Assembly (NCBI GenBank): GCA_001821055.1
Contig: MHRT01000005.1
Span: 156,378 to 220,377 of the forward strand
Direction of reading: 5' to 3'
Length of the DNA: 64,000 bases
DNA from: Candidatus Taylorbacteria bacterium RIFCSPHIGHO2_12_FULL_45_16
GTDB taxonomy: Bacteria > Patescibacteriota > Minisyncoccia > Phycocordibacterales > PALSA-1337
Shown here: positions 10,277-49,432 of the stretch, in pieces
Layout: each line of letters starts with the position of its first letter
Numbering within the stretch: position 1 is the first letter of the stretch
The notes under the pieces: generated by a model
Seen by the model: only the letters and a program-made list of their open reading frames with translations
Databases searched by the model: none
Told to the model about the DNA's origin: nothing
Program-made: the position numbers and the translations under genes

Positions 10277-10493
10277 AGAAGTAGCGTCTCACAAGGTGGT
10301 GCTCTCCAACTCAAGCCCCAGATACTCTGAGGGAACATCGGAGCGCCTCGTAAGTTATTATCGCATACTTCTGAGATAAGAATAACAAATGGGGCACACC
10401 GTGTGTCAACTAGACATGTGAATTACTTTTAATTTGTAATAAGATGCCTTGTGCAGGAGGCGAAGATTTGACAGAATAATTGCATTTAATATA

Positions 10494-42764: not shown

Positions 42765-42857
42765 GTAATTATTGGGCTAATGGTTAAATGCACGGATAAT
42801 TATATTATGTGATAAAAAAATGTCAAAATTTTGTAACATTACATGAGTCAAATTACT

Positions 42858-43028
42858 GGTAGCCCTACGGGGAATCGCCCGCGCCTCTCGCCTCGCCAGC
42901 TCGGCTCGGGCTGGGCACCGGCTCGCGGCCTCGCGTGCTCGCTCGACATCGCTCCGCCGTTCGATCCCCCAGTCGCAGGCACTCAAAGTGCCTGCTCGGT
43001 TTCTACTAATATTACCTACTTAAGTAAC
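42858..43028. repeat. Direct repeat DR-A (171 bp), beginning with the tRNA-Glu 3'-terminal 19-mer gtagccctacggggaatcg
   Basis: Matches 49179-49350 with about 2 substitutions and 1 indel. Contains the hairpin gcaggcactcaaagtgcctgc. Confidence 0.85.
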
Positions 43029-43036
43029 GTCACCGA

Positions 43037-43083
43037 GTAGGCAAATTGTAACATTCGCGCGAACTTTTTACGAGCAAAATTGA
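43037..43083. repeat. Inverted repeat IR-L (47 bp), partner at 49089-49135
   Basis: gtaggcaaattgtaacattcgcgcgaactttttacgagcaaaattga is the reverse complement of 49089-49135 with 1 mismatch. Confidence 0.85.
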
Positions 43084-43088
43084 AGTAC

Positions 43089-44126
43089 CGCCGCCCACAA
43101 TTTCACTGGGGGCGTGCGAGGGCGGCGGGACTACTGCCTCGGCGCTGAAAACTCGGGGGACTGGGGGCGAGTTTTCAGCGCCGTCCGCTTTTTTGGGGGC
43201 GGGGATGGTTTTAAATTTAAAATTAAAGCGCATACCATTGCTGATATGCGCTTTCCTTAGTCCACGTGACCGTGACCGAGTCTAGCAAAGCACGCTGAAC
43301 AGAACTCTAGCGCACTCGAATTAAAGAACAATGAAATTTTGGAGGGGGTTTTACCTCCCTCCCAGTACTCCACAGCAGACAAGAATGCGTTAGCGAGCTT
43401 GCACTCTACGCCACCGGAAAATGGTAACAATAAAAATTCTTAGACGAGCCCCTGTTTTATCAAGGGCTCGTCCCGTAGACTGCCGCAGTGCACTTGAGTC
43501 TAGCCAAGCAAACTACAGGACGCTTCGGCATGAACTGGTATGCAATACGACCAAATCTAACTGGAAATTTTTGCACGAGTGATTTTTAGGCCACTCGTGC
43601 TCCTTAGAGTGGCGTAGCCGAGTATACTGAAGGAAACCAGACTGCAGCGGACCTCAGAACGCGGGGCCAAACCGGAAAGAGTAACCGACCATACCCGAAG
43701 ATATGGTCGGTTCCGTAGACTGCCGCAGCAAACATTTGGCGCACTGCACGCAACGGCAGCGAAGCCCAGGCTGCGTCACTATCAAAATCATCTAAAAATA
43801 GATTAACATAGATATTATAAAAAGTAAAGCGTATACCATTTCTGATATACGCTTTCATTAGTGAACTGCACGACAGCACAGCCTACGATAGTAAGGCACA
43901 GCATAGTCGAGCGAACCACAAAATGACTACGAAATTATAGCTATAGCCAACTGGACCGAACCAAGATTACTAAACCCGAGAAATTTTTAGTAGGAGTGAT
44001 TTTTAGGCCACCCCTACTCCGTACTGAACCCTACTGCAGGAAGCGCTACGATGGAGAACTGCTCCAAGCGTCACAACTGCGTAGTGTCAGAAATTGTAGC
44101 CGACCCCACCCGAAGATGGGATCGGC
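43089..44126. repeat. ORF-free block of at least 10 stem-loops at ~83-165-nt spacing, in families sharing the loop and inner stem while the outer stem varies with compensatory changes
   Basis: H3 43225-43254 aaagcgcata-ccattgctg-atatgcgcttt pairs with H8 43826-43855 aaagcgtata-ccatttctg-atatacgcttt (c/g changed to t/a on both arms). H6 cacgagtg-atttttaggc-cactcgtg pairs with H9 gtaggagtg-atttttaggc-cacccctac. H7 ccgaccat-acccgaagat-atggtcgg pairs with H10 gccgacccc-acccgaagat-gggatcggc. Most hairpins are followed by CC-R-TA-N (ccgtagactgccgcag twice). Confidence 0.7.
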
Positions 44127-44200
44127 CCGTACTTTGCAGGAGGATACTGGAGCGAACGCGAGCTCAGCTAACTGAAGCATGCACCAGTGTACCCTGTAAA

Positions 44201-46018
44201 CTACTTTCCCTTTAACAGCTCCTCTGCTTGGGAAATGCACTCGTCAAATGTACGATCGTTGACGTATGCCTTTTCAAGCCATTTGGGAAGTGAAGCGTGG
44301 ACGAATCGCCGGAACTGTTGAGACATGAATATTGTCACTCCAAGGTCTTTGGTTGAACGAATGTTCCGACCGCGAACCTGAAGTGCCTGTATCATAACCC
44401 GCCAATTCCACAATGCCCAGCGACTACCACCGAATCGTTCCTCCTCAAACTGAGTGCCCGGATCGCTTGGATTCGGATACCCTGGACGCAGGAAGAAGAT
44501 GACTGGAGCAATCTGTTTGGGCAGATCGACCCCTTCGGCATAGTTTGAAGCTGTGCCGCAGAGGACATCGCCTTCACCATCACGGAAACGAACTGCCGCC
44601 TCCTTGGCGGTCACACCGTTCCCATAACTGATAGCTTTGAGGCCTTCCTCTTCCGCCATCATCATGAACTTATCGCGCTCGAGATTCGAGATGGTGACGA
44701 AGAGACTACGAATCCCTTTGTCTGCCAATCGCTTCGAGGCGCGAGCGACCATGCGAATACTTTTCGGAAGATCACGATTACTGCGTTCGTTCACTGCCAA
44801 GTTGGCTGTGTTCGTCGGCATGAAGAGCCGAGCATTGTCAGATGGAAAGTTGGATTCCAGACTGAATACCGGATTCCGTATCCCCGTCTCGTGCCCGAAT
44901 ACCTCCGGATCACCGATCGTAGCCGAGAGCGCCACCGTCGTCTTGCCCATGATCTTTTGGATAATTGGCGCGACGTAGTAACACTTGACCACCAGTCGAT
45001 ACTGCACATGCTCCTTTTCACCCTTTTCCTCCTTGTAATAGGCGTAGGTGTAGTTGAGCGCGTGGCGATTCTGATCAGGAAGTGAATACTCGAATGAGCG
45101 CAGGTAGCGGCGAAGGTCTTTCACCACAACCTCAAGCTTCTTCAGAGTCTCTCGCTTCTCCACGACATCAATGACTTTTTCCTGCACGGCCTTTTCAAGC
45201 TTGCGCAGGAGTCCTGATTGGTCGATGACCTCGAGTTTCTCCATGAGCGCACCAACCTCGCGTGCATTGAGCACGGTTTTCTGATGCGCCGGTTTCGACT
45301 TGATGATGTAGATCAACTTCTTGTAGAAGTCGTGAAGCAATTCTGCCTCCTCGGCGCCAATCTCTCGCAGAAGCTCCACCGACTTGCGCAAATGCCAATC
45401 GGTTATTTCATACGAGAGCGCGTTCCTGACCACTTCGGCCATGCGGTGTGCTTCGTCAATGACGAGCACTTCCGGCTGTTCCCATTCCCGGCTGAAAAGC
45501 TGGGTGAAGAGATAGAAAGCCATAGTGGAAAGAACAATGCCACCCTGTTTAGCCTCGAACTTCTGCTTCAAGTACGGACAAGGGATCGCTCCCTCGACAA
45601 AAGTCTTGCCTGTTGCTTGGTCCACTCTATGCGGGCAGTCTTTGAGCAGTGAGCATGGGATTTCATCCGCCATCGGCTGTTTGTCTGCCGGCAGTGTGTC
45701 CTTGAAGTAGTGACATTGATGCTCATTGCGCCCGAGAGCGACCTTGAGATCAGGAAACTCTTGGCGGATCTGCTCCATCAGAGTCTTGTTCGTTGTGATG
45801 AGGAAGAGCGGTTGTTTCCGCTTCAAATCCGCGGCCTTGAGTACGGTATACTCTACGGCAGTCTTGCCGCTTCCTGTGGGAGATTCGATCGTGACCGAGC
45901 CATTCTCGGAGATGATACGAAACATTTCCCGCTGACTTGCCCACGGTGCTCTGCGGAGAGCGTTTGTGGGGAATGTCTCTTCTAGCAGAGACAATTTTAG
46001 ATGTTCCAGATGTTGCAT
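44201..46018 (-). CDS. DinG/XPD(Rad3)-family Fe-S cluster DNA helicase
   Basis: Walker A ESPTGSGKTAVEY; four Cys between motifs I and II (HQCHYF, IPCSLLKDCPHR, IPCPYL); DEAH box VLVIDEAHRM; C-terminal helicase motifs (VLCGTASNYAEGVDLP…VIFFLRPGYP). The track ORF extends to 46087; the likely start is MQHLEHL at 46018. GC-rich codon usage. Confidence 0.7.
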   Translation of the reverse strand: MQHLEHLKLSLLEETFPTNALRRAPWASQREMFRIISENGSVTIESPTGSGKTAVEYTVLKAADLKRKQPLFLITTNKTLMEQIRQEFPDLKVALGRNEHQCHYFKDTLPADKQPMADEIPCSLLKDCPHRVDQATGKTFVEGAIPCPYLKQKFEAKQGGIVLSTMAFYLFTQLFSREWEQPEVLVIDEAHRMAEVVRNALSYEITDWHLRKSVELLREIGAEEAELLHDFYKKLIYIIKSKPAHQKTVLNAREVGALMEKLEVIDQSGLLRKLEKAVQEKVIDVVEKRETLKKLEVVVKDLRRYLRSFEYSLPDQNRHALNYTYAYYKEEKGEKEHVQYRLVVKCYYVAPIIQKIMGKTTVALSATIGDPEVFGHETGIRNPVFSLESNFPSDNARLFMPTNTANLAVNERSNRDLPKSIRMVARASKRLADKGIRSLFVTISNLERDKFMMMAEEEGLKAISYGNGVTAKEAAVRFRDGEGDVLCGTASNYAEGVDLPKQIAPVIFFLRPGYPNPSDPGTQFEEERFGGSRWALWNWRVMIQALQVRGRNIRSTKDLGVTIFMSQQFRRFVHASLPKWLEKAYVNDRTFDECISQAEELLKGK

Positions 46019-46032
46019 GTTTCCTTTCTTCT

Positions 46033-46377
46033 CTACTTTTTGTTGTCGATCCAAGCAACGAGCTTGAACCTGCCGATTCCTTCCCACTTGTCCGACCGAC
46101 CAAGCACGTTAGGTGCTCCTGTAGGAATAGTCGTGTTTTCCATGAGCTCGTATAGACGCCCGTGGAATATTGTTCTGAGTCCCGCTTTCACGGTCTCATT
46201 CGGCCTTCCCATAATCGGCAGATAGCGGAATGTTTTGTCCTGCGGATCATATTCGTTCTTTCGTTCAGGTATTAGATGAGCATATTTGTTCACACTCGTA
46301 TGATGTCCGCGTCTTGGTCTGTGATCCGACTTACGACGGAATCGTGGACCATAATGTGGATAGACTTTTTTACCCAT
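46033..46377 (-). CDS. Hypothetical basic protein (island cargo)
   Basis: 114-aa ORF with the SD-like AGGAGAA 9 nt upstream; Arg/His-rich N-terminus. No family recognised. Confidence 0.35.
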   Translation of the reverse strand: MGKKVYPHYGPRFRRKSDHRPRRGHHTSVNKYAHLIPERKNEYDPQDKTFRYLPIMGRPNETVKAGLRTIFHGRLYELMENTTIPTGAPNVLGRSDKWEGIGRFKLVAWIDNKK

Positions 46378-46666
46378 GAGAATATCCGTTCTCCTAAATT
46401 GTATTTGTTGTCAAAAAATCAAGCTTACTCGGCCTGATTCTGGCTTAGCTGTTAAGGGCTTTTCCATTTTTGATGCTAACATACAATAAGTAATCCGTCA
46501 ACTTGCGTAAAGGACCGTGTTCTGTTACGCTGTAATTACAAATGGCTTCGGCCTCGCCCCGCTCACGCGGGGAGGAAGAAATGAGCGATTATTCTATCAA
46601 ACGAATGATCGCTTGTTTTATTTTCTGAAACTGTTCCGAGTCAATGGTGGTGATTTTTTCCTGTAA

Positions 46667-46978
46667 TCACTTGGAGTCTACCAATCGAATTTGAGATAGA
46701 ATGATTTTTCGCGCTACCTTATCACCTAGATTAATATCCGCATAGTATTTTCCTTTTTTATTTTTTGTAGTAAGTGGCACAGATAAAAATACTTCTTTAT
46801 TGAAACCCTTGATGATTAGTACTGGGCGCGCAAAATCAAATCCTTTGCCATCCTGCTCAAATCCAACATTTTCTCCGAGAGAACACCACCAGATTTCTCG
46901 CTCATGATAAAATCGCCGCTCCTTTTCATTATGGATATTTTGCTTGAGTGTATGCCATTTTTGAAAATCTTTTTTCAT
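46667..46978 (-). CDS. MazF/PemK/Kid-like toxin-fold protein (mRNA interferase family); no adjacent antitoxin ORF found
   Basis: …REIWWCSLGENVGFEQDGKGFDFARPVLIIKG…FLSVPLTTKNKKGKYYADINLGDKVARKIILSQIRLVD matches MazF-like logic (RGDI…G.EQ.G.RP.LVL…P.T…….V…QIR.ID). 103 aa. Confidence 0.5.
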   Translation of the reverse strand: MKKDFQKWHTLKQNIHNEKERRFYHEREIWWCSLGENVGFEQDGKGFDFARPVLIIKGFNKEVFLSVPLTTKNKKGKYYADINLGDKVARKIILSQIRLVDSK

Positions 46979-47002: not shown

Positions 47003-48030
47003 GGCAGGCACTCATTGAGAATGCCCGCCCCATAGAATAGGACTAGTCTGGATTAGTGCAGCCAACTCCGCGCAACTTCACGGCACTGTAGACTGAAATT
47101 TCAGACAAGGAACAAGATGGATAAATCTCGGCGGGGAATTTTCATTCCCCGCCCCGTAGACTGGTGAAGCGTGGTTTAGTACAGGCCAACAAGGAGAACA
47201 GAACTACACCTTACCGGATCAAATCACATGTTGAAACCATGACTCCTTCTGTAAAAAGTAAACGGTAGGAGAAAGTTGATGCTCTCTCCTACCCCTTGCG
47301 CAACCGCACCGCTCCCTAGAGTAGCCCACGGGAGGGCAGCTAACTCCAACAAACGATGGTGGAAATGTAAATTCTGCCGTGGAGTTTTACCTCCACGGCC
47401 CATACTCGAGTGCACAGCAGAGAGGAAAGACGCGCTAAGGCGAACTCCGGGCTGGTTTACACTAGAGAAAAGTTTGGCGGGAGTTTTACCTCCCAGCCCC
47501 ATACTTAGGCACGCGACCACTTCAGGCCACAGTGGGCTAGGCCAGGTCACACCACCCTAAATTTGTTTTAGTCTGAATTTAATATAACATACAAAGCTAA
47601 ATTATGCAAATTTAAAGCGCATACCATTGCTGATATGCGCTTTCCATAGAAGACCGATGTGAAGCTTGGCGCACCTCACTGAAGACAGCGGCACGCGACC
47701 AAGGGACACTACAACGGACTCGAAAAGAACAATTATGAAATTATGTCGCGGAGATATTTCACTCCGCGACCAATACTAAACGGCAGTGTAGTCTAGCCCA
47801 CTGCGGCTAACCGAGCTACACCGAGGTGTGCGCGAGACTGCCACAAAGAACAAACTGGAAAGTGAAAGAATGGCGGGGAATTTTCATTCCCCGCCCCGTA
47901 ACACAGATAACTAGAGTTGCAGAAAAGTCCACCACAGTCCGGGGAACAAAACCGCACCTTACGCGACCCTACGTTACGCAAAAAATCTGAAAATTATAGG
48001 CGGAGGTCAATCTTGCGATCAACCTCCGCC
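47003..48030. repeat. ORF-free block of degenerate ~100-138-bp tandem units (three intervals of exactly 127), each carrying one stem-loop
   Basis: Hairpin starts at 47003, 47130, 47264, 47376, 47476, 47614, 47745, 47872, 47999. ggcggggaat-tttc-attccccgcc is identical at 47130 and 47872. gccgtggag-ttttac-ctccacggc and ggcgggag-ttttac-ctcccagcc share loop and inner stem. aaagcgcata…tatgcgcttt at 47614 is a third copy of the array-1 H3 family. Units starting at 47130 and 47872 also share caccttacYg about 80 nt in. Confidence 0.7.
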
Positions 48031-48146
48031 CCACAGAGAAGCCCGGGACAGTTTAGTTCAGTATGCCCTAGTGAGCGACACGCGAGCTAAGACCAGATCA
48101 CCGAACTGCAAACCCTATTGACTCTGAAGGACGCGCGGACGGAAGG

Positions 48147-48839
48147 TCAGCTGGTCACGACTTCCGCGAGCCGATTGGCACCATTGCCCGACACCGGTGC
48201 TGACGCTTCGGTTTCCTCGGACTCTTCGGGTCTCGTGCCTTGCTTGTCCGATTCTTCCATCGTCACTTCCCATTTCTTGACCGCGAAACGGCCGAAGGGA
48301 CCGCCCTTGTTCGGACGGAAGTCACCGATGCCCGCTTTGGAGCCGGCGGTGTCCACAAGCTGGCGAATCAGAGTGTCTTTCGCTTGCTTGCCATCAACTT
48401 GGAAGGTCACATCGAGCGACCAATCCTTGAACTTCGGGCGGACGATGCAGACGGCGATGTCCATGCAGGTACCGCGACGCATGTCGGGTTCCCACGCAAT
48501 TTCGCCCTTGGCGTTGTTGTCCGCGAACGGCAGAAACTCTTCCTCAATGGAGAGGAACGAGTAGAGCAAGGTGCCCTCAGCAGTCGAAACCGCCTTCTTA
48601 CCGTCGAATTTGTGGAACCGACCAGCGGCTTTGATGGCCGCGAGCAGATTCAGTGTGGGAATGCCCATCGGCCCGGTGCTGTCGTTCTGGCGGTAGATCT
48701 TCGTAACAGCTTCCTGTTTTGGCGACAGATCTTTGGCCTTGGGCGCATGGACTTTGGTACGGAGACCTTCCAAGGTCGCCGGAGTCATGCGATTGATAAG
48801 GAGTGGGCTAATGCCCACGAGTAGTGCGCGTATTTTCAT
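48147..48839 (-). CDS. Hypothetical protein (island cargo), acidic C-terminal tail
   Basis: About 230-aa ORF; the likely start is MKIRALLVGISPLL at 48839, and the track ORF begins at 48884. GC-rich. No family recognised. Confidence 0.4.
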   Translation of the reverse strand: MKIRALLVGISPLLINRMTPATLEGLRTKVHAPKAKDLSPKQEAVTKIYRQNDSTGPMGIPTLNLLAAIKAAGRFHKFDGKKAVSTAEGTLLYSFLSIEEEFLPFADNNAKGEIAWEPDMRRGTCMDIAVCIVRPKFKDWSLDVTFQVDGKQAKDTLIRQLVDTAGSKAGIGDFRPNKGGPFGRFAVKKWEVTMEESDKQGTRPEESEETEASAPVSGNGANRLAEVVTS

Positions 48840-49088
48840 AACCTTACTTTCCGACTTTAGAGCAGAATCAATGATCCTGCTCAAGACGTTATTACCTTTG
48901 TTTTATGCTGTCAAAGAAAAGGCTTTGTTAAGCCCTATAAATAGGTCCACCCTAATTACAAAAAAAGGTTAGCACATTGATTTATTTGTGTCAATAGCAT
49001 GCTTGACAACTTTACTATTCTATTTGTATATATAAATACATATAAAGTACACTATTCACGGTCTAATGCGTGTCGGTACAGCGGGACA

Positions 49089-49135
49089 TCAATTTTGCTC
49101 GTAAAAAGTTCGCGTGAATGTTACAATTTGCCTAC
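49089..49135. repeat. Inverted repeat IR-R (partner of 43037-43083)
   Basis: tcaattttgctcgtaaaaagttcgcgtgaatgttacaatttgcctac. Confidence 0.85.
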
Positions 49136-49178
49136 CAACAAAAATGGCCTTCGCATTCGCTTAGGCTCATTTTTGTAT

Positions 49179-49350
49179 TGGTAGCCCTACGGGGAATCGC
49201 CCGCGCCTCTCGCCTCGCCAGCTCGGCTCGGGCTGGGCACCGGCTCGCGGCCTCGCGTGCTCGCTCGGCATCGCTCCGCCGTTCGATTCCCCAGTCGCAG
49301 GCACTCAAAGTGCCTGCTCGGTTTCTACTAATATTACCTACTTAAGTAAC
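49179..49350. repeat. Direct repeat DR-B (172 bp), immediately adjacent to tRNA-Glu
   Basis: See DR-A. Separated from the tRNA 3' end by only 10 nt (aacatctctc, 49351-49360). Confidence 0.85.
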
Positions 49351-49360
49351 ATCTCTCTCG

Positions 49361-49432
49361 TAGCCCTACGGGGAATCGAACCCCGATTACTGCCTTGAGA
49401 AGGCAATGTCCTAACCGTTAGACGATAGGGCC
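49361..49432 (-). tRNA. tRNA-Glu (anticodon CUC)
   Basis: Minus-strand read GGCCCTA-TC-GTCT-AACGGTTA-GGAC-A-TTGCC-TTCTCAA-GGCAG-TAAT-CGGGG-TTCGATT-CCCCG-TAGGGCT-A: cloverleaf with G1.U72, 7-nt T-loop TTCGATT, anticodon loop TTCTCAA. CCA not encoded. Confidence 0.8.

Follow-up and report, generated by a model that had tools for sequence, protein, structure and literature searches.

A predicted helicase-type VIPR system with vrRNA-like arrays on a tRNA-Glu island of a Patescibacteria genome

Systems of the Viral Interference Programmable Repeat (VIPR) kind, described in 2026, perform RNA-guided DNA recognition that is CRISPR-like yet CRISPR-independent (bioRxiv 10.64898/2026.04.26.720920 and 10.64898/2026.04.26.720927). 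According to the preprint text, the Vipr protein is an early-branching RAMP, and its guides, the vrRNAs, are about 100 nucleotides (nt) long, carry a structured 3' tail behind 9-16 YNNGG pentamers and are encoded in the long non-coding flanks of vipr; the repeat variants NNNGG, YNNNG and NNNNG are also given there. Loci typically combine vipr with one vap gene and fall into seven types. The vap genes of types III-V are predicted nucleases or helicases, with nucleases confined to III and V, and the role of the helicase accessory genes is termed unclear. Experiments concern type II, from phage SUSP1 and a Pseudomonas fulva prophage, whose vap1 is DNA-binding; vrRNAs of the SUSP1 clade combine the canonical YNNGG repeat with an invariant pseudoknotted tail. 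Here, we analysed a 64,000-nt stretch of DNA (the window) from Candidatus Taylorbacteria bacterium RIFCSPHIGHO2_12_FULL_45_16, in which a GC-rich, 6.3-kb island at a tRNA-Glu gene encodes a helicase of the XPD/DinG kind. As read from its sequence alone, this island very probably carries a helicase-type VIPR system with the following core features:

48147-48884, minus strand: vipr, a 245-amino-acid (aa) Cas7-like RAMP and predicted guide-RNA-binding subunit (profile match, AlphaFold2 fold, phrog_4652)
44201-46018, minus strand: helicase, a vap-type accessory gene (domain and family matches, motifs, profile, fold and linkage to vipr)
47003-48130, minus strand: vrRNA-like array A, between vipr and a MazF-like gene, nine units (pentamer tracts and tail hairpins)
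43225-44200, minus strand: vrRNA-like array B, downstream of the helicase, eight units (same evidence as for array A)

A profile built from 44 homologues of the 245-aa protein matches the Protein Data Bank (PDB) chain 36pp_D, 'SUSP1 Vipr protein', with E=2.9e-21, and the match spans positions 1-186 of the 194 in the profile and residues 1-189 of the 202 in the chain; the single window sequence also matches this chain (E=3.8e-5). Searched with Foldseek, the AlphaFold2 model (pLDDT 84) matches type VII Cas7 and type III Csm3 chains with E-values down to 6e-6, and a G-rich loop (G181..G185-DFR..G195-x-FG-x-F) is invariant among the homologues. The sole family match of the open reading frame (ORF) is phrog_4652, whose function is not named; Pfam, NCBIfam and PADLOC gave no assignment, and no PADLOC Cas7 or Csf2 model matched. 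Homologues lacking a named function were found by tblastn in Felixounavirus and actinophage genomes, and none among PLSDB plasmids. The predicted product is thus a Vipr protein, a minimal RAMP of the VIPR family, whose hallmarks are an RRM core, a G-rich loop and a thumb; the true start of the ORF may be the internal Met17, at about 48836. The original prediction had taken a 114-aa ORF as the partner of the helicase and had not connected the 245-aa protein with it; the partner is the latter.

The non-coding stretches on either side of the helicase contain 17 hairpins, eight in 43225-44128 and nine in 47003-48031:

47003-47029, 47130-47153, 47264-47293, 47376-47399 and 47477-47497, minus strand: tail hairpins 1-5 of array A
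47614-47643, 47753-47772, 47872-47895 and 47998-48031, minus strand: tail hairpins 6-9 of array A
43225-43254, 43341-43362, 43442-43473 and 43573-43599, minus strand: tail hairpins 1-4 of array B
43684-43713, 43826-43855, 43990-44017 and 44099-44128, minus strand: tail hairpins 5-8 of array B

Their stems are GC-rich and 7-16 bp long, they are spaced at 101-164 nt in both arrays, which is also the unit length, and they score as terminator-like, each with AAUUU(C) after it. On the minus strand every hairpin is preceded by about 12-15 pentamers of the consensus (U/C)NNN(G/C); one tract reads, in register, TCGAG TCCGT TGTAG TGTCC CTTGG TCGCG TGCCG ... TATGG, and then the hairpin follows. A regular expression for canonical YNNGG had returned zero runs in the window, and for this reason a variant consensus was sought. 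In the 65 nt preceding each of the 17 hairpins, period 5 stands far above shuffled sequences (z=10.4) and is the only periodicity. Across whole arrays, coherent Fourier analysis showed no period-5 signal, since each unit resets the phase, and the analysis was made per unit instead. When a Y...S pentamer pattern was fitted by dynamic programming, the minus strand scored 360.5 and the plus strand 211.5, against 182.6±11.3 for shuffles. Position 1 of the pentamer is T (.72) or C (.22) and position 5 is G (.46) or C (.44), while the middle three are unconstrained. As RNA, the hairpins have a summed folding energy of -332 kcal/mol on the minus strand versus -260.5 on the plus strand, and they hold 19 G·U pairs on the gene strand versus 3 on the opposite one, an asymmetry that argues for selection on the gene-strand RNA.

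The 3' tails fall into several hairpin sequence classes. The hairpin AAAGCGCATA...TATGCGCTTT occurs in three copies over both arrays (47614-47643, 43225-43254 and 43826-43855), and an identical GGCGGGGAAT... hairpin lies at 47130-47153 and at 47872-47895. Units that share a tail hairpin differ in their guide tracts, which suggests that units were duplicated and then re-diversified in the pentamer tract. In their anatomy the 17 units look like vrRNA genes in which the hairpin would be the 3' tail or the terminator, with a single deviation, namely that the G position holds G or C. The unit length and the terminator-like ends are compatible with the size given for vrRNAs in the preprint text.

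Other array types were considered. In TIGR-Tas systems, stem-loop arrays can be guide RNAs, and variable hairpin-unit arrays surround a small RNA-binding protein in bacteria belonging to the candidate phyla radiation (CPR) and in phages, as here (PMC12045711). Tas, however, has a Nop domain and its units carry box C/D motifs with dual spacers inside the loop, whereas the window protein is a RAMP and the information would lie in 5-nt repeats outside a small hairpin; TIGR-Tas stem arrays were rejected, as the Pfam scan showed no Nop domain. Anatomy alone was the ground for dismissing integron attC sites, REP/RAYT elements and ToxIN-like repeats. Coding of the arrays in an alternative genetic code was rejected without a direct test, because they show no 3-nt but a strong 5-nt periodicity. 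Scanned against Rfam with a permissive E-value, the island gave only the tRNA and chance matches, with no family for the array units.

The helicase ORF was listed with a GTG start (44201-46087); ATG 46018 is the most plausible start, since the resulting 605 aa equal the length of the homologues. Its Pfam matches are limited to Helicase_C_2, DEAD, ResIII and DEAD_2. The 28 aligned homologues keep GSGKT and DEAH, and Cys102, Cys122, Cys128 and Cys147 are kept in 28, 25, 28 and 28 of them. The AlphaFold2 model (pLDDT 88.7) aligns along its whole length with DinG and XPD and contains no nuclease or other added domain. In the fold search, E. coli DinG and archaeal and eukaryotic XPD reached template-modelling (TM) scores of 0.65-0.70, and the family profile matched PDB sequences of XPD (2e-20), archaeal XPD (about 1e-13) and DinG (3e-10). 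The 605-aa protein is therefore classed as a superfamily 2 (SF2) helicase of the XPD/DinG (Rad3) family with a predicted Fe-S cluster. It shares with that family its best sequence and fold matches, Walker A, DEAH, the four-Cys insert in helicase domain 1 (HD1), an Arch-type insertion and Helicase_C_2 as HD2, and with archaeal XPD a similar size (about 600 aa); it differs in being only about 15% identical and in being dedicated to a vipr/vrRNA module outside any repair-gene context. The original prediction of a stand-alone helicase with XPD/DinG hallmarks, lying between two hairpin arrays in an element that also encodes a toxin-fold protein, is borne out on each of these counts: motifs and cysteines are conserved, Pfam and the model agree that nothing is fused, the proposed search with DEAD_2 and Helicase_C_2 matched both domains, and the arrays of eight and nine hairpins and the toxin-fold gene are in place.

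More than 360 close homologues of the helicase were found, nearly all in Patescibacteria. A scan of species-representative genomes gave 74 related loci with helicases 37-93% identical to that of the window, the closest (L016, 93%) being from a Candidatus Taylorbacteria metagenome-assembled genome. In the first five contexts inspected, gene-free, hairpin-rich stretches flank the helicase, which is preceded by a 200-316-aa protein that has no Pfam match and is 31-41% identical to the window Vipr. A Vipr hidden Markov model (HMM) matches 67 of the 74 loci, within a few kb, usually upstream and on the same strand; four of the seven loci without vipr are cut by a contig end, and no Vipr accompanies six archaeal helicases of about 20% identity. 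When ORFs of 75 loci were clustered, helicase and Vipr were the only recurrent neighbour families. The surroundings are non-syntenic (between fusA and tuf, beside the L25 gene, at tRNA genes), so that the helicase is no ordinary chromosomal DinG but cargo of a variable island. Syntenic positions in relatives, which would have spoken against the original prediction, are not what the homologues show: they almost always stand beside the same partner gene and arrays.

The array signature is conserved as well. The spacer between vipr and helicase has a median of 1095 nt and a period-5 power of 1.08, versus 0.72 in the helicase coding sequence and 0.70 for a period-7 control. It exceeds that of the helicase coding sequence in 60 of 61 measurable loci, which answers in the affirmative the earlier question of whether homologous helicases elsewhere are flanked by similar arrays. 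In the related loci tandem NGYNN covers 16,400 nt of the sense strand versus 1,130 nt of the antisense strand and 989 nt in shuffles, an excess which implies that the clade uses a YNNNG-type consensus and that the window relaxes its G to G/C. Between the window and L016 the genes are 79-82% identical in DNA and the arrays align at the hairpins only, the pattern expected of rapidly replaced guides.

Two side observations concern these relatives. The same helicase (43-57% identity) and vipr module occur in records labelled Woesearchaeota/Aenigmatarchaeota archaeon, Gammaproteobacteria and Bdellovibrionales (L018, L042, L044 and L022, L035, L062, L067, L081, L087, L061); these labels probably reflect mis-binning or mislabelling in co-assemblies, and for the archaeal ones real spread into DPANN archaea is a possible alternative. 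Many related loci also hold a second, far more divergent Vipr-like gene (HMM E-values 1e-14 to 1e-29), mostly located downstream, beyond the helicase and its array, while the window has one vipr only. This second gene could encode a paralogous capping or specialised subunit. Examples, with L017 and L031 as further loci, are:

L004, 15278-15814; L008, 5277-5942; L027, 9136-9795; L033, 7308-7925: second Vipr-like genes
L037, 4558-5118; L048, 5047-5748; L085, 10043-10711: second Vipr-like genes, continued

In common with the systems described in the preprint text, of which type II is the one studied experimentally, the window locus has a Vipr homologue that is similar over the full length of the profile and folds like Cas7, arrays in its long non-coding flanks with units of about 100 nt in which pentamers precede a structured 3' tail, and a two-gene core without a CRISPR array; helicase vap genes and YNNNG-type repeats are given for some VIPR types. 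It comprises vipr and one vap gene, with no CRISPR array and no other PADLOC Cas matches, and is in this respect a minimal VIPR locus. It differs in being chromosomal in Patescibacteria rather than in a phage or prophage, in having an XPD-like Fe-S helicase instead of the DNA-binding vap1 as accessory gene, and in its many more guides (about 17).

Four other explanations of the locus have to be weighed. That the helicase is a housekeeping DinG/XPD repair enzyme lying among REP-like hairpins or intrinsic terminators would accord with its fold, which equals those of DinG and XPD, with the terminator-like hairpin scores and with weak, sub-threshold NCBIfam YoaA/DinG matches; these matches, however, fall far under the equivalog cut-offs (e.g., 62 vs 680 bits), the gene contexts are non-syntenic, vipr is linked to the helicase in 67 of 74 genomes, and the more distant archaeal helicases lack vipr. 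Nor would terminators or REPs produce a strand-specific 5-nt periodicity between hairpins. This explanation is extremely unlikely and already largely refuted. A degenerate or minimal type IV-A CRISPR-Cas locus, with CasDinG, a Csf2-like Cas7 and a decayed array, is very unlikely for different reasons. The PADLOC model PDLC01439 ('typeIV_DinG; CAS-IV-A; associated') does match the helicase end to end (E=4.9e-43), and since no other type IV parts accompany it, automated annotation would mislabel the protein as a type IV-A CRISPR-associated DinG; a defence-annotation pipeline would overlook both Vipr and the guide arrays. The systems are also alike in pairing a Cas7-family RNA-guided DNA binder with an SF2 XPD/DinG 5'-3' helicase, in having no nuclease and in the likely outcome, non-destructive interference or repression. 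Yet neither a Csf4 equivalog nor an array with Csf1, Csf2, Csf3, Cas6 and Csf5 is present. The helicase scores 25.6 bits with TIGR03117 (cas_csf4), against a cut-off of 400; CasDinG chains reach TM scores of 0.53-0.60, beneath DinG and XPD, and none is named among the best 60 of 96 matches of the helicase profile to PDB sequences (E≤1). The four Fe-S cysteines are retained, whereas the FeS domain of the solved CasDinG is vestigial (PMC10450177). Neither Tandem Repeats Finder nor a search for CRISPR-like periodicity detected a CRISPR array in the window; there is no fixed repeat, the unit spacing varies, the guides would be pentamer-repeat RNAs, Csf1, Csf3 and Cas6 are absent, only two gene families recur in the related loci, and the Cas7 fold of Vipr comes without a match to a PADLOC Cas7/Csf2 model. 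CasDinG is not a nearer match to the helicase than XPD and DinG, which by sequence and fold are equal or nearer. Of the original comparison with CasDinG, a functional analogy at best survives.

The remaining two explanations turn on what the hairpins do. Type III toxin-antitoxin systems place RNA repeats upstream of the toxin gene, and array A occupies the stretch just upstream of the MazF-like gene, on its strand, with no protein antitoxin ORF visible; array A might then be the RNA antitoxin of a MazF-like endoribonuclease and the helicase unrelated cargo. Against this stand the related loci, which keep the arrays without any MazF-like gene, the position of array B downstream of the helicase and far from the toxin, and the units themselves, which at about 120 nt are divergent rather than short exact tandem repeats, and we regard the idea as highly improbable. 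The original prediction had seen the helicase as part of a replication or defence-related module that acts on the hairpins. On this view the hairpins would serve as DNA, for instance as single-stranded sites at which a small mobile element replicates or recombines and which the helicase unwinds. XPD/DinG helicases do act on single-stranded DNA, and the island lacks an integrase and lies between inverted and direct repeats. The excess of G·U pairs points instead to selection on RNA and not on DNA cruciforms, the stems vary between units while the 5-nt periodic tracts are their common feature, and elsewhere, where these island ends are missing, vipr comes with the same arrays. We consider it very improbable that the hairpins act as DNA: a defence or interference-type module with arrays stands, but in place of helicase substrates the arrays have the anatomy of guide-RNA genes.

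Several points weigh against the assignment to VIPR. The repeat, (U/C)NNN(G/C) in the window and NGYNN across the clade, is looser than YNNGG, and the near equality of G and C at the G position is not mentioned in the preprint text. The tails are simple hairpins of several sequences, as opposed to the invariant pseudoknotted tail described there for the SUSP1 clade. From that text we tentatively infer type IV, because nucleases or helicases are given for types III-V and nucleases for III and V only. Expression of the vrRNAs, their binding by Vipr and targeting are all predictions from the DNA, and the role of the helicase is proposed by analogy. Target searches add to this side. Under nine position/skip rules the window and a set of related loci (1.2 Mb) yielded self-matches only; four IMG/VR scans with 8-10-repeat patterns under the canonical NN+1 rule gave counts at chance level, none of the matches extending along the guide; one JGI metagenome scan gave a single match that agreed at 1 of 8 further positions, as by chance; and 567 guide-like runs, drawn from all the related loci, compared with 1.08 Mb of related loci under six rules scored as shuffled guides did. 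The searched databases probably lack the relevant Patescibacteria mobile elements, since the end sequence of the island itself is absent from the metagenome collection.

It is possible to outline how a helicase-type VIPR system would work. Following the preprint text on VIPR, Vipr protomers would polymerise along the vrRNA, one per pentamer, sequestering the conserved G/C-pyrimidine positions and presenting the variable bases. The filament would recognise double-stranded DNA by gapped, noncontiguous pairing, giving an R-loop or triplex, and target binding alone could silence transcription. In our proposal, the bound target would offer a single strand, displaced or flanking, to which the helicase is recruited or on which it is loaded. 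Translocating 5'-3' at a locus without a nuclease, it could widen interference in a non-destructive manner, for example by displacing RNA polymerase or replisomes or by propagating the unwinding, in a way analogous, and not orthologous, to the action of CasDinG in type IV-A CRISPR. Host defence or competition between mobile or integrated elements is a more likely role than that of a phage weapon, since the loci are chromosomal, in CRISPR-poor Patescibacteria, and IMG/VR contigs gave no match to the helicase.

The preprint text already covers VIPR itself, with its helicase-bearing types and its YNNNG repeats, and a locus that points to the helicase branch of this new class of RNA-guided systems is less surprising than it would have been before the 2026 preprints. 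What is added here is the Patescibacteria-wide module of vipr, array, XPD-like helicase and array, the relaxed S-Y consensus, simple hairpin tails of several classes, about 17 guides at a single locus and a tRNA-Glu island without a recombinase. With only the DNA-binding type II studied experimentally, the locus and its 74 relatives form a coherent helicase-bearing clade, apparently limited to Patescibacteria, with a core of two genes, extensive arrays of guides and a divergent repeat consensus; it bears on how a helicase is coupled to a gapped R-loop or triplex, on the recognition code in relation to the repeat consensus, and on VIPR as programmable defence of small-genome CPR bacteria, which usually lack CRISPR. 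A bolder proposal, which we hold only tentatively and think unlikely as a whole, is that the Patescibacteria helicase-type VIPR is a nuclease-free RNA-guided interference machine with a new reading rule and a filament-loaded Fe-S helicase. Three positions of the relaxed N-(G/C)-Y-N-N repeat vary to an equal degree, and the repeat may be read by a register or skip rule other than the published 1-nt skip; the gapped R-loop of the Vipr filament may be the loading platform for the Fe-S XPD-like helicase. In that case a Cas7-like filament and an XPD/DinG helicase, paired in type IV-A CRISPR too, would have come together independently, or earlier, outside CRISPR, and CRISPR-poor CPR bacteria would carry a programmable defence of about 17 guides on a 6-kb island without an integrase.

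The island has a GC content of 0.48-0.54 (at about 43-49 kb) versus about 0.42 around it, and its four genes, the 245-aa ORF, the MazF/PemK-like gene, the 114-aa ORF and the helicase, are all on the minus strand. Its ends and local extra features are:

49360-49432, minus strand: tRNA-Glu(CTC), apparent integration site (ARAGORN; Rfam tRNA, 62 bits)
42854-43031: 178-nt direct repeat, copy 1, starting with a 22-nt copy of the tRNA-Glu 3' end
49176-49353: 178-nt direct repeat, copy 2, immediately beside the tRNA gene
43037-43091: 55-nt inverted repeat, left arm bounding the cargo, 95% complementary to 49081-49135
49081-49135: 55-nt inverted repeat, right arm
43140-43183 (region to 43224): perfect hairpin with 16-bp arms, a 12-nt loop and G-run flanks (GGGGGCGGGG)
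46667-46978, minus strand: MazF/PemK-like toxin-fold gene, 103 aa, locus-specific extra (Pfam PemK_toxin, E=4e-7; phrog_9567 MazF-like, E=1.4e-13)
46033-46377, minus strand: 114-aa basic ORF, not part of the core, upstream of the helicase, with the Shine-Dalgarno sequence AGGAGAA before its ATG
46473-46501, minus strand: promoter-like site TTGACG-17-TAGCAT with TG, upstream of the 114-aa ORF and helicase (consensus scan only)

The two direct repeats are 98% identical and each begins with 22 nt of the tRNA 3' end, of which the end of tRNA-Glu itself is a third copy; the inverted repeat is located just inside them. The order is thus the tRNA-Glu 3' end, 156 nt with the 22-nt tRNA-end copy, one inverted-repeat arm, the 6-kb cargo, the opposite arm, and again 156 nt with the tRNA-end copy. 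This looks like either tandem integration with one stump copy or an element bounded by terminal inverted repeats with a 178-nt duplication. No integrase or transposase was found within the island, and the 55-nt inverted repeat is absent from the rest of the window, from the related loci and from the metagenome collection. The hairpin at 43140-43183, which separates the last vrRNA unit from the left inverted repeat, departs from the pattern of the vrRNA units. A tRNA-Glu(CTC) also lies nearby in three other related loci.

Of the four island genes, the MazF-like one and the 114-aa ORF count as local extras. The former is solitary, between array A and the helicase operon, with no antitoxin ORF of at least 20 aa evident beside it, and tblastn found it in none of the related loci. 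The 114-aa ORF ends 15 nt before the helicase ATG. The earlier description of this basic ORF with its AGGAGAA holds; as a conserved partner of the helicase it fails, homologues at about 51-53% identity being found in only 2 of about 80 related loci (L016, 2424-2753; L033, 7026-7292). Scans with Pfam, PADLOC, PHROG and NCBIfam gave it no family match, it lacks 3-nt periodicity, though it is short, and a likeness of its C-terminus to the 'GRFxVxxW' motif of Vipr was rejected (hhalign probability 1.5%). It occurs in 3 clusters of a 5.8-billion-protein database and is also annotated, in identical form, in a Candidatus Taylorbacteria RIFCSPHIGHO2_02_FULL genome. In L016 the 114-aa homologue is about 51% identical while the adjacent helicase is 93% identical, so the ORF evolves much faster than the helicase, and in L033 it lies directly upstream of the second, divergent Vipr-like gene and not of the helicase. 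Elsewhere in the window, and unrelated to the island, an Rfam DUF3800-V RNA motif lies at 10277-10372 on the minus strand (76.7 bits; gathering threshold 37.4).

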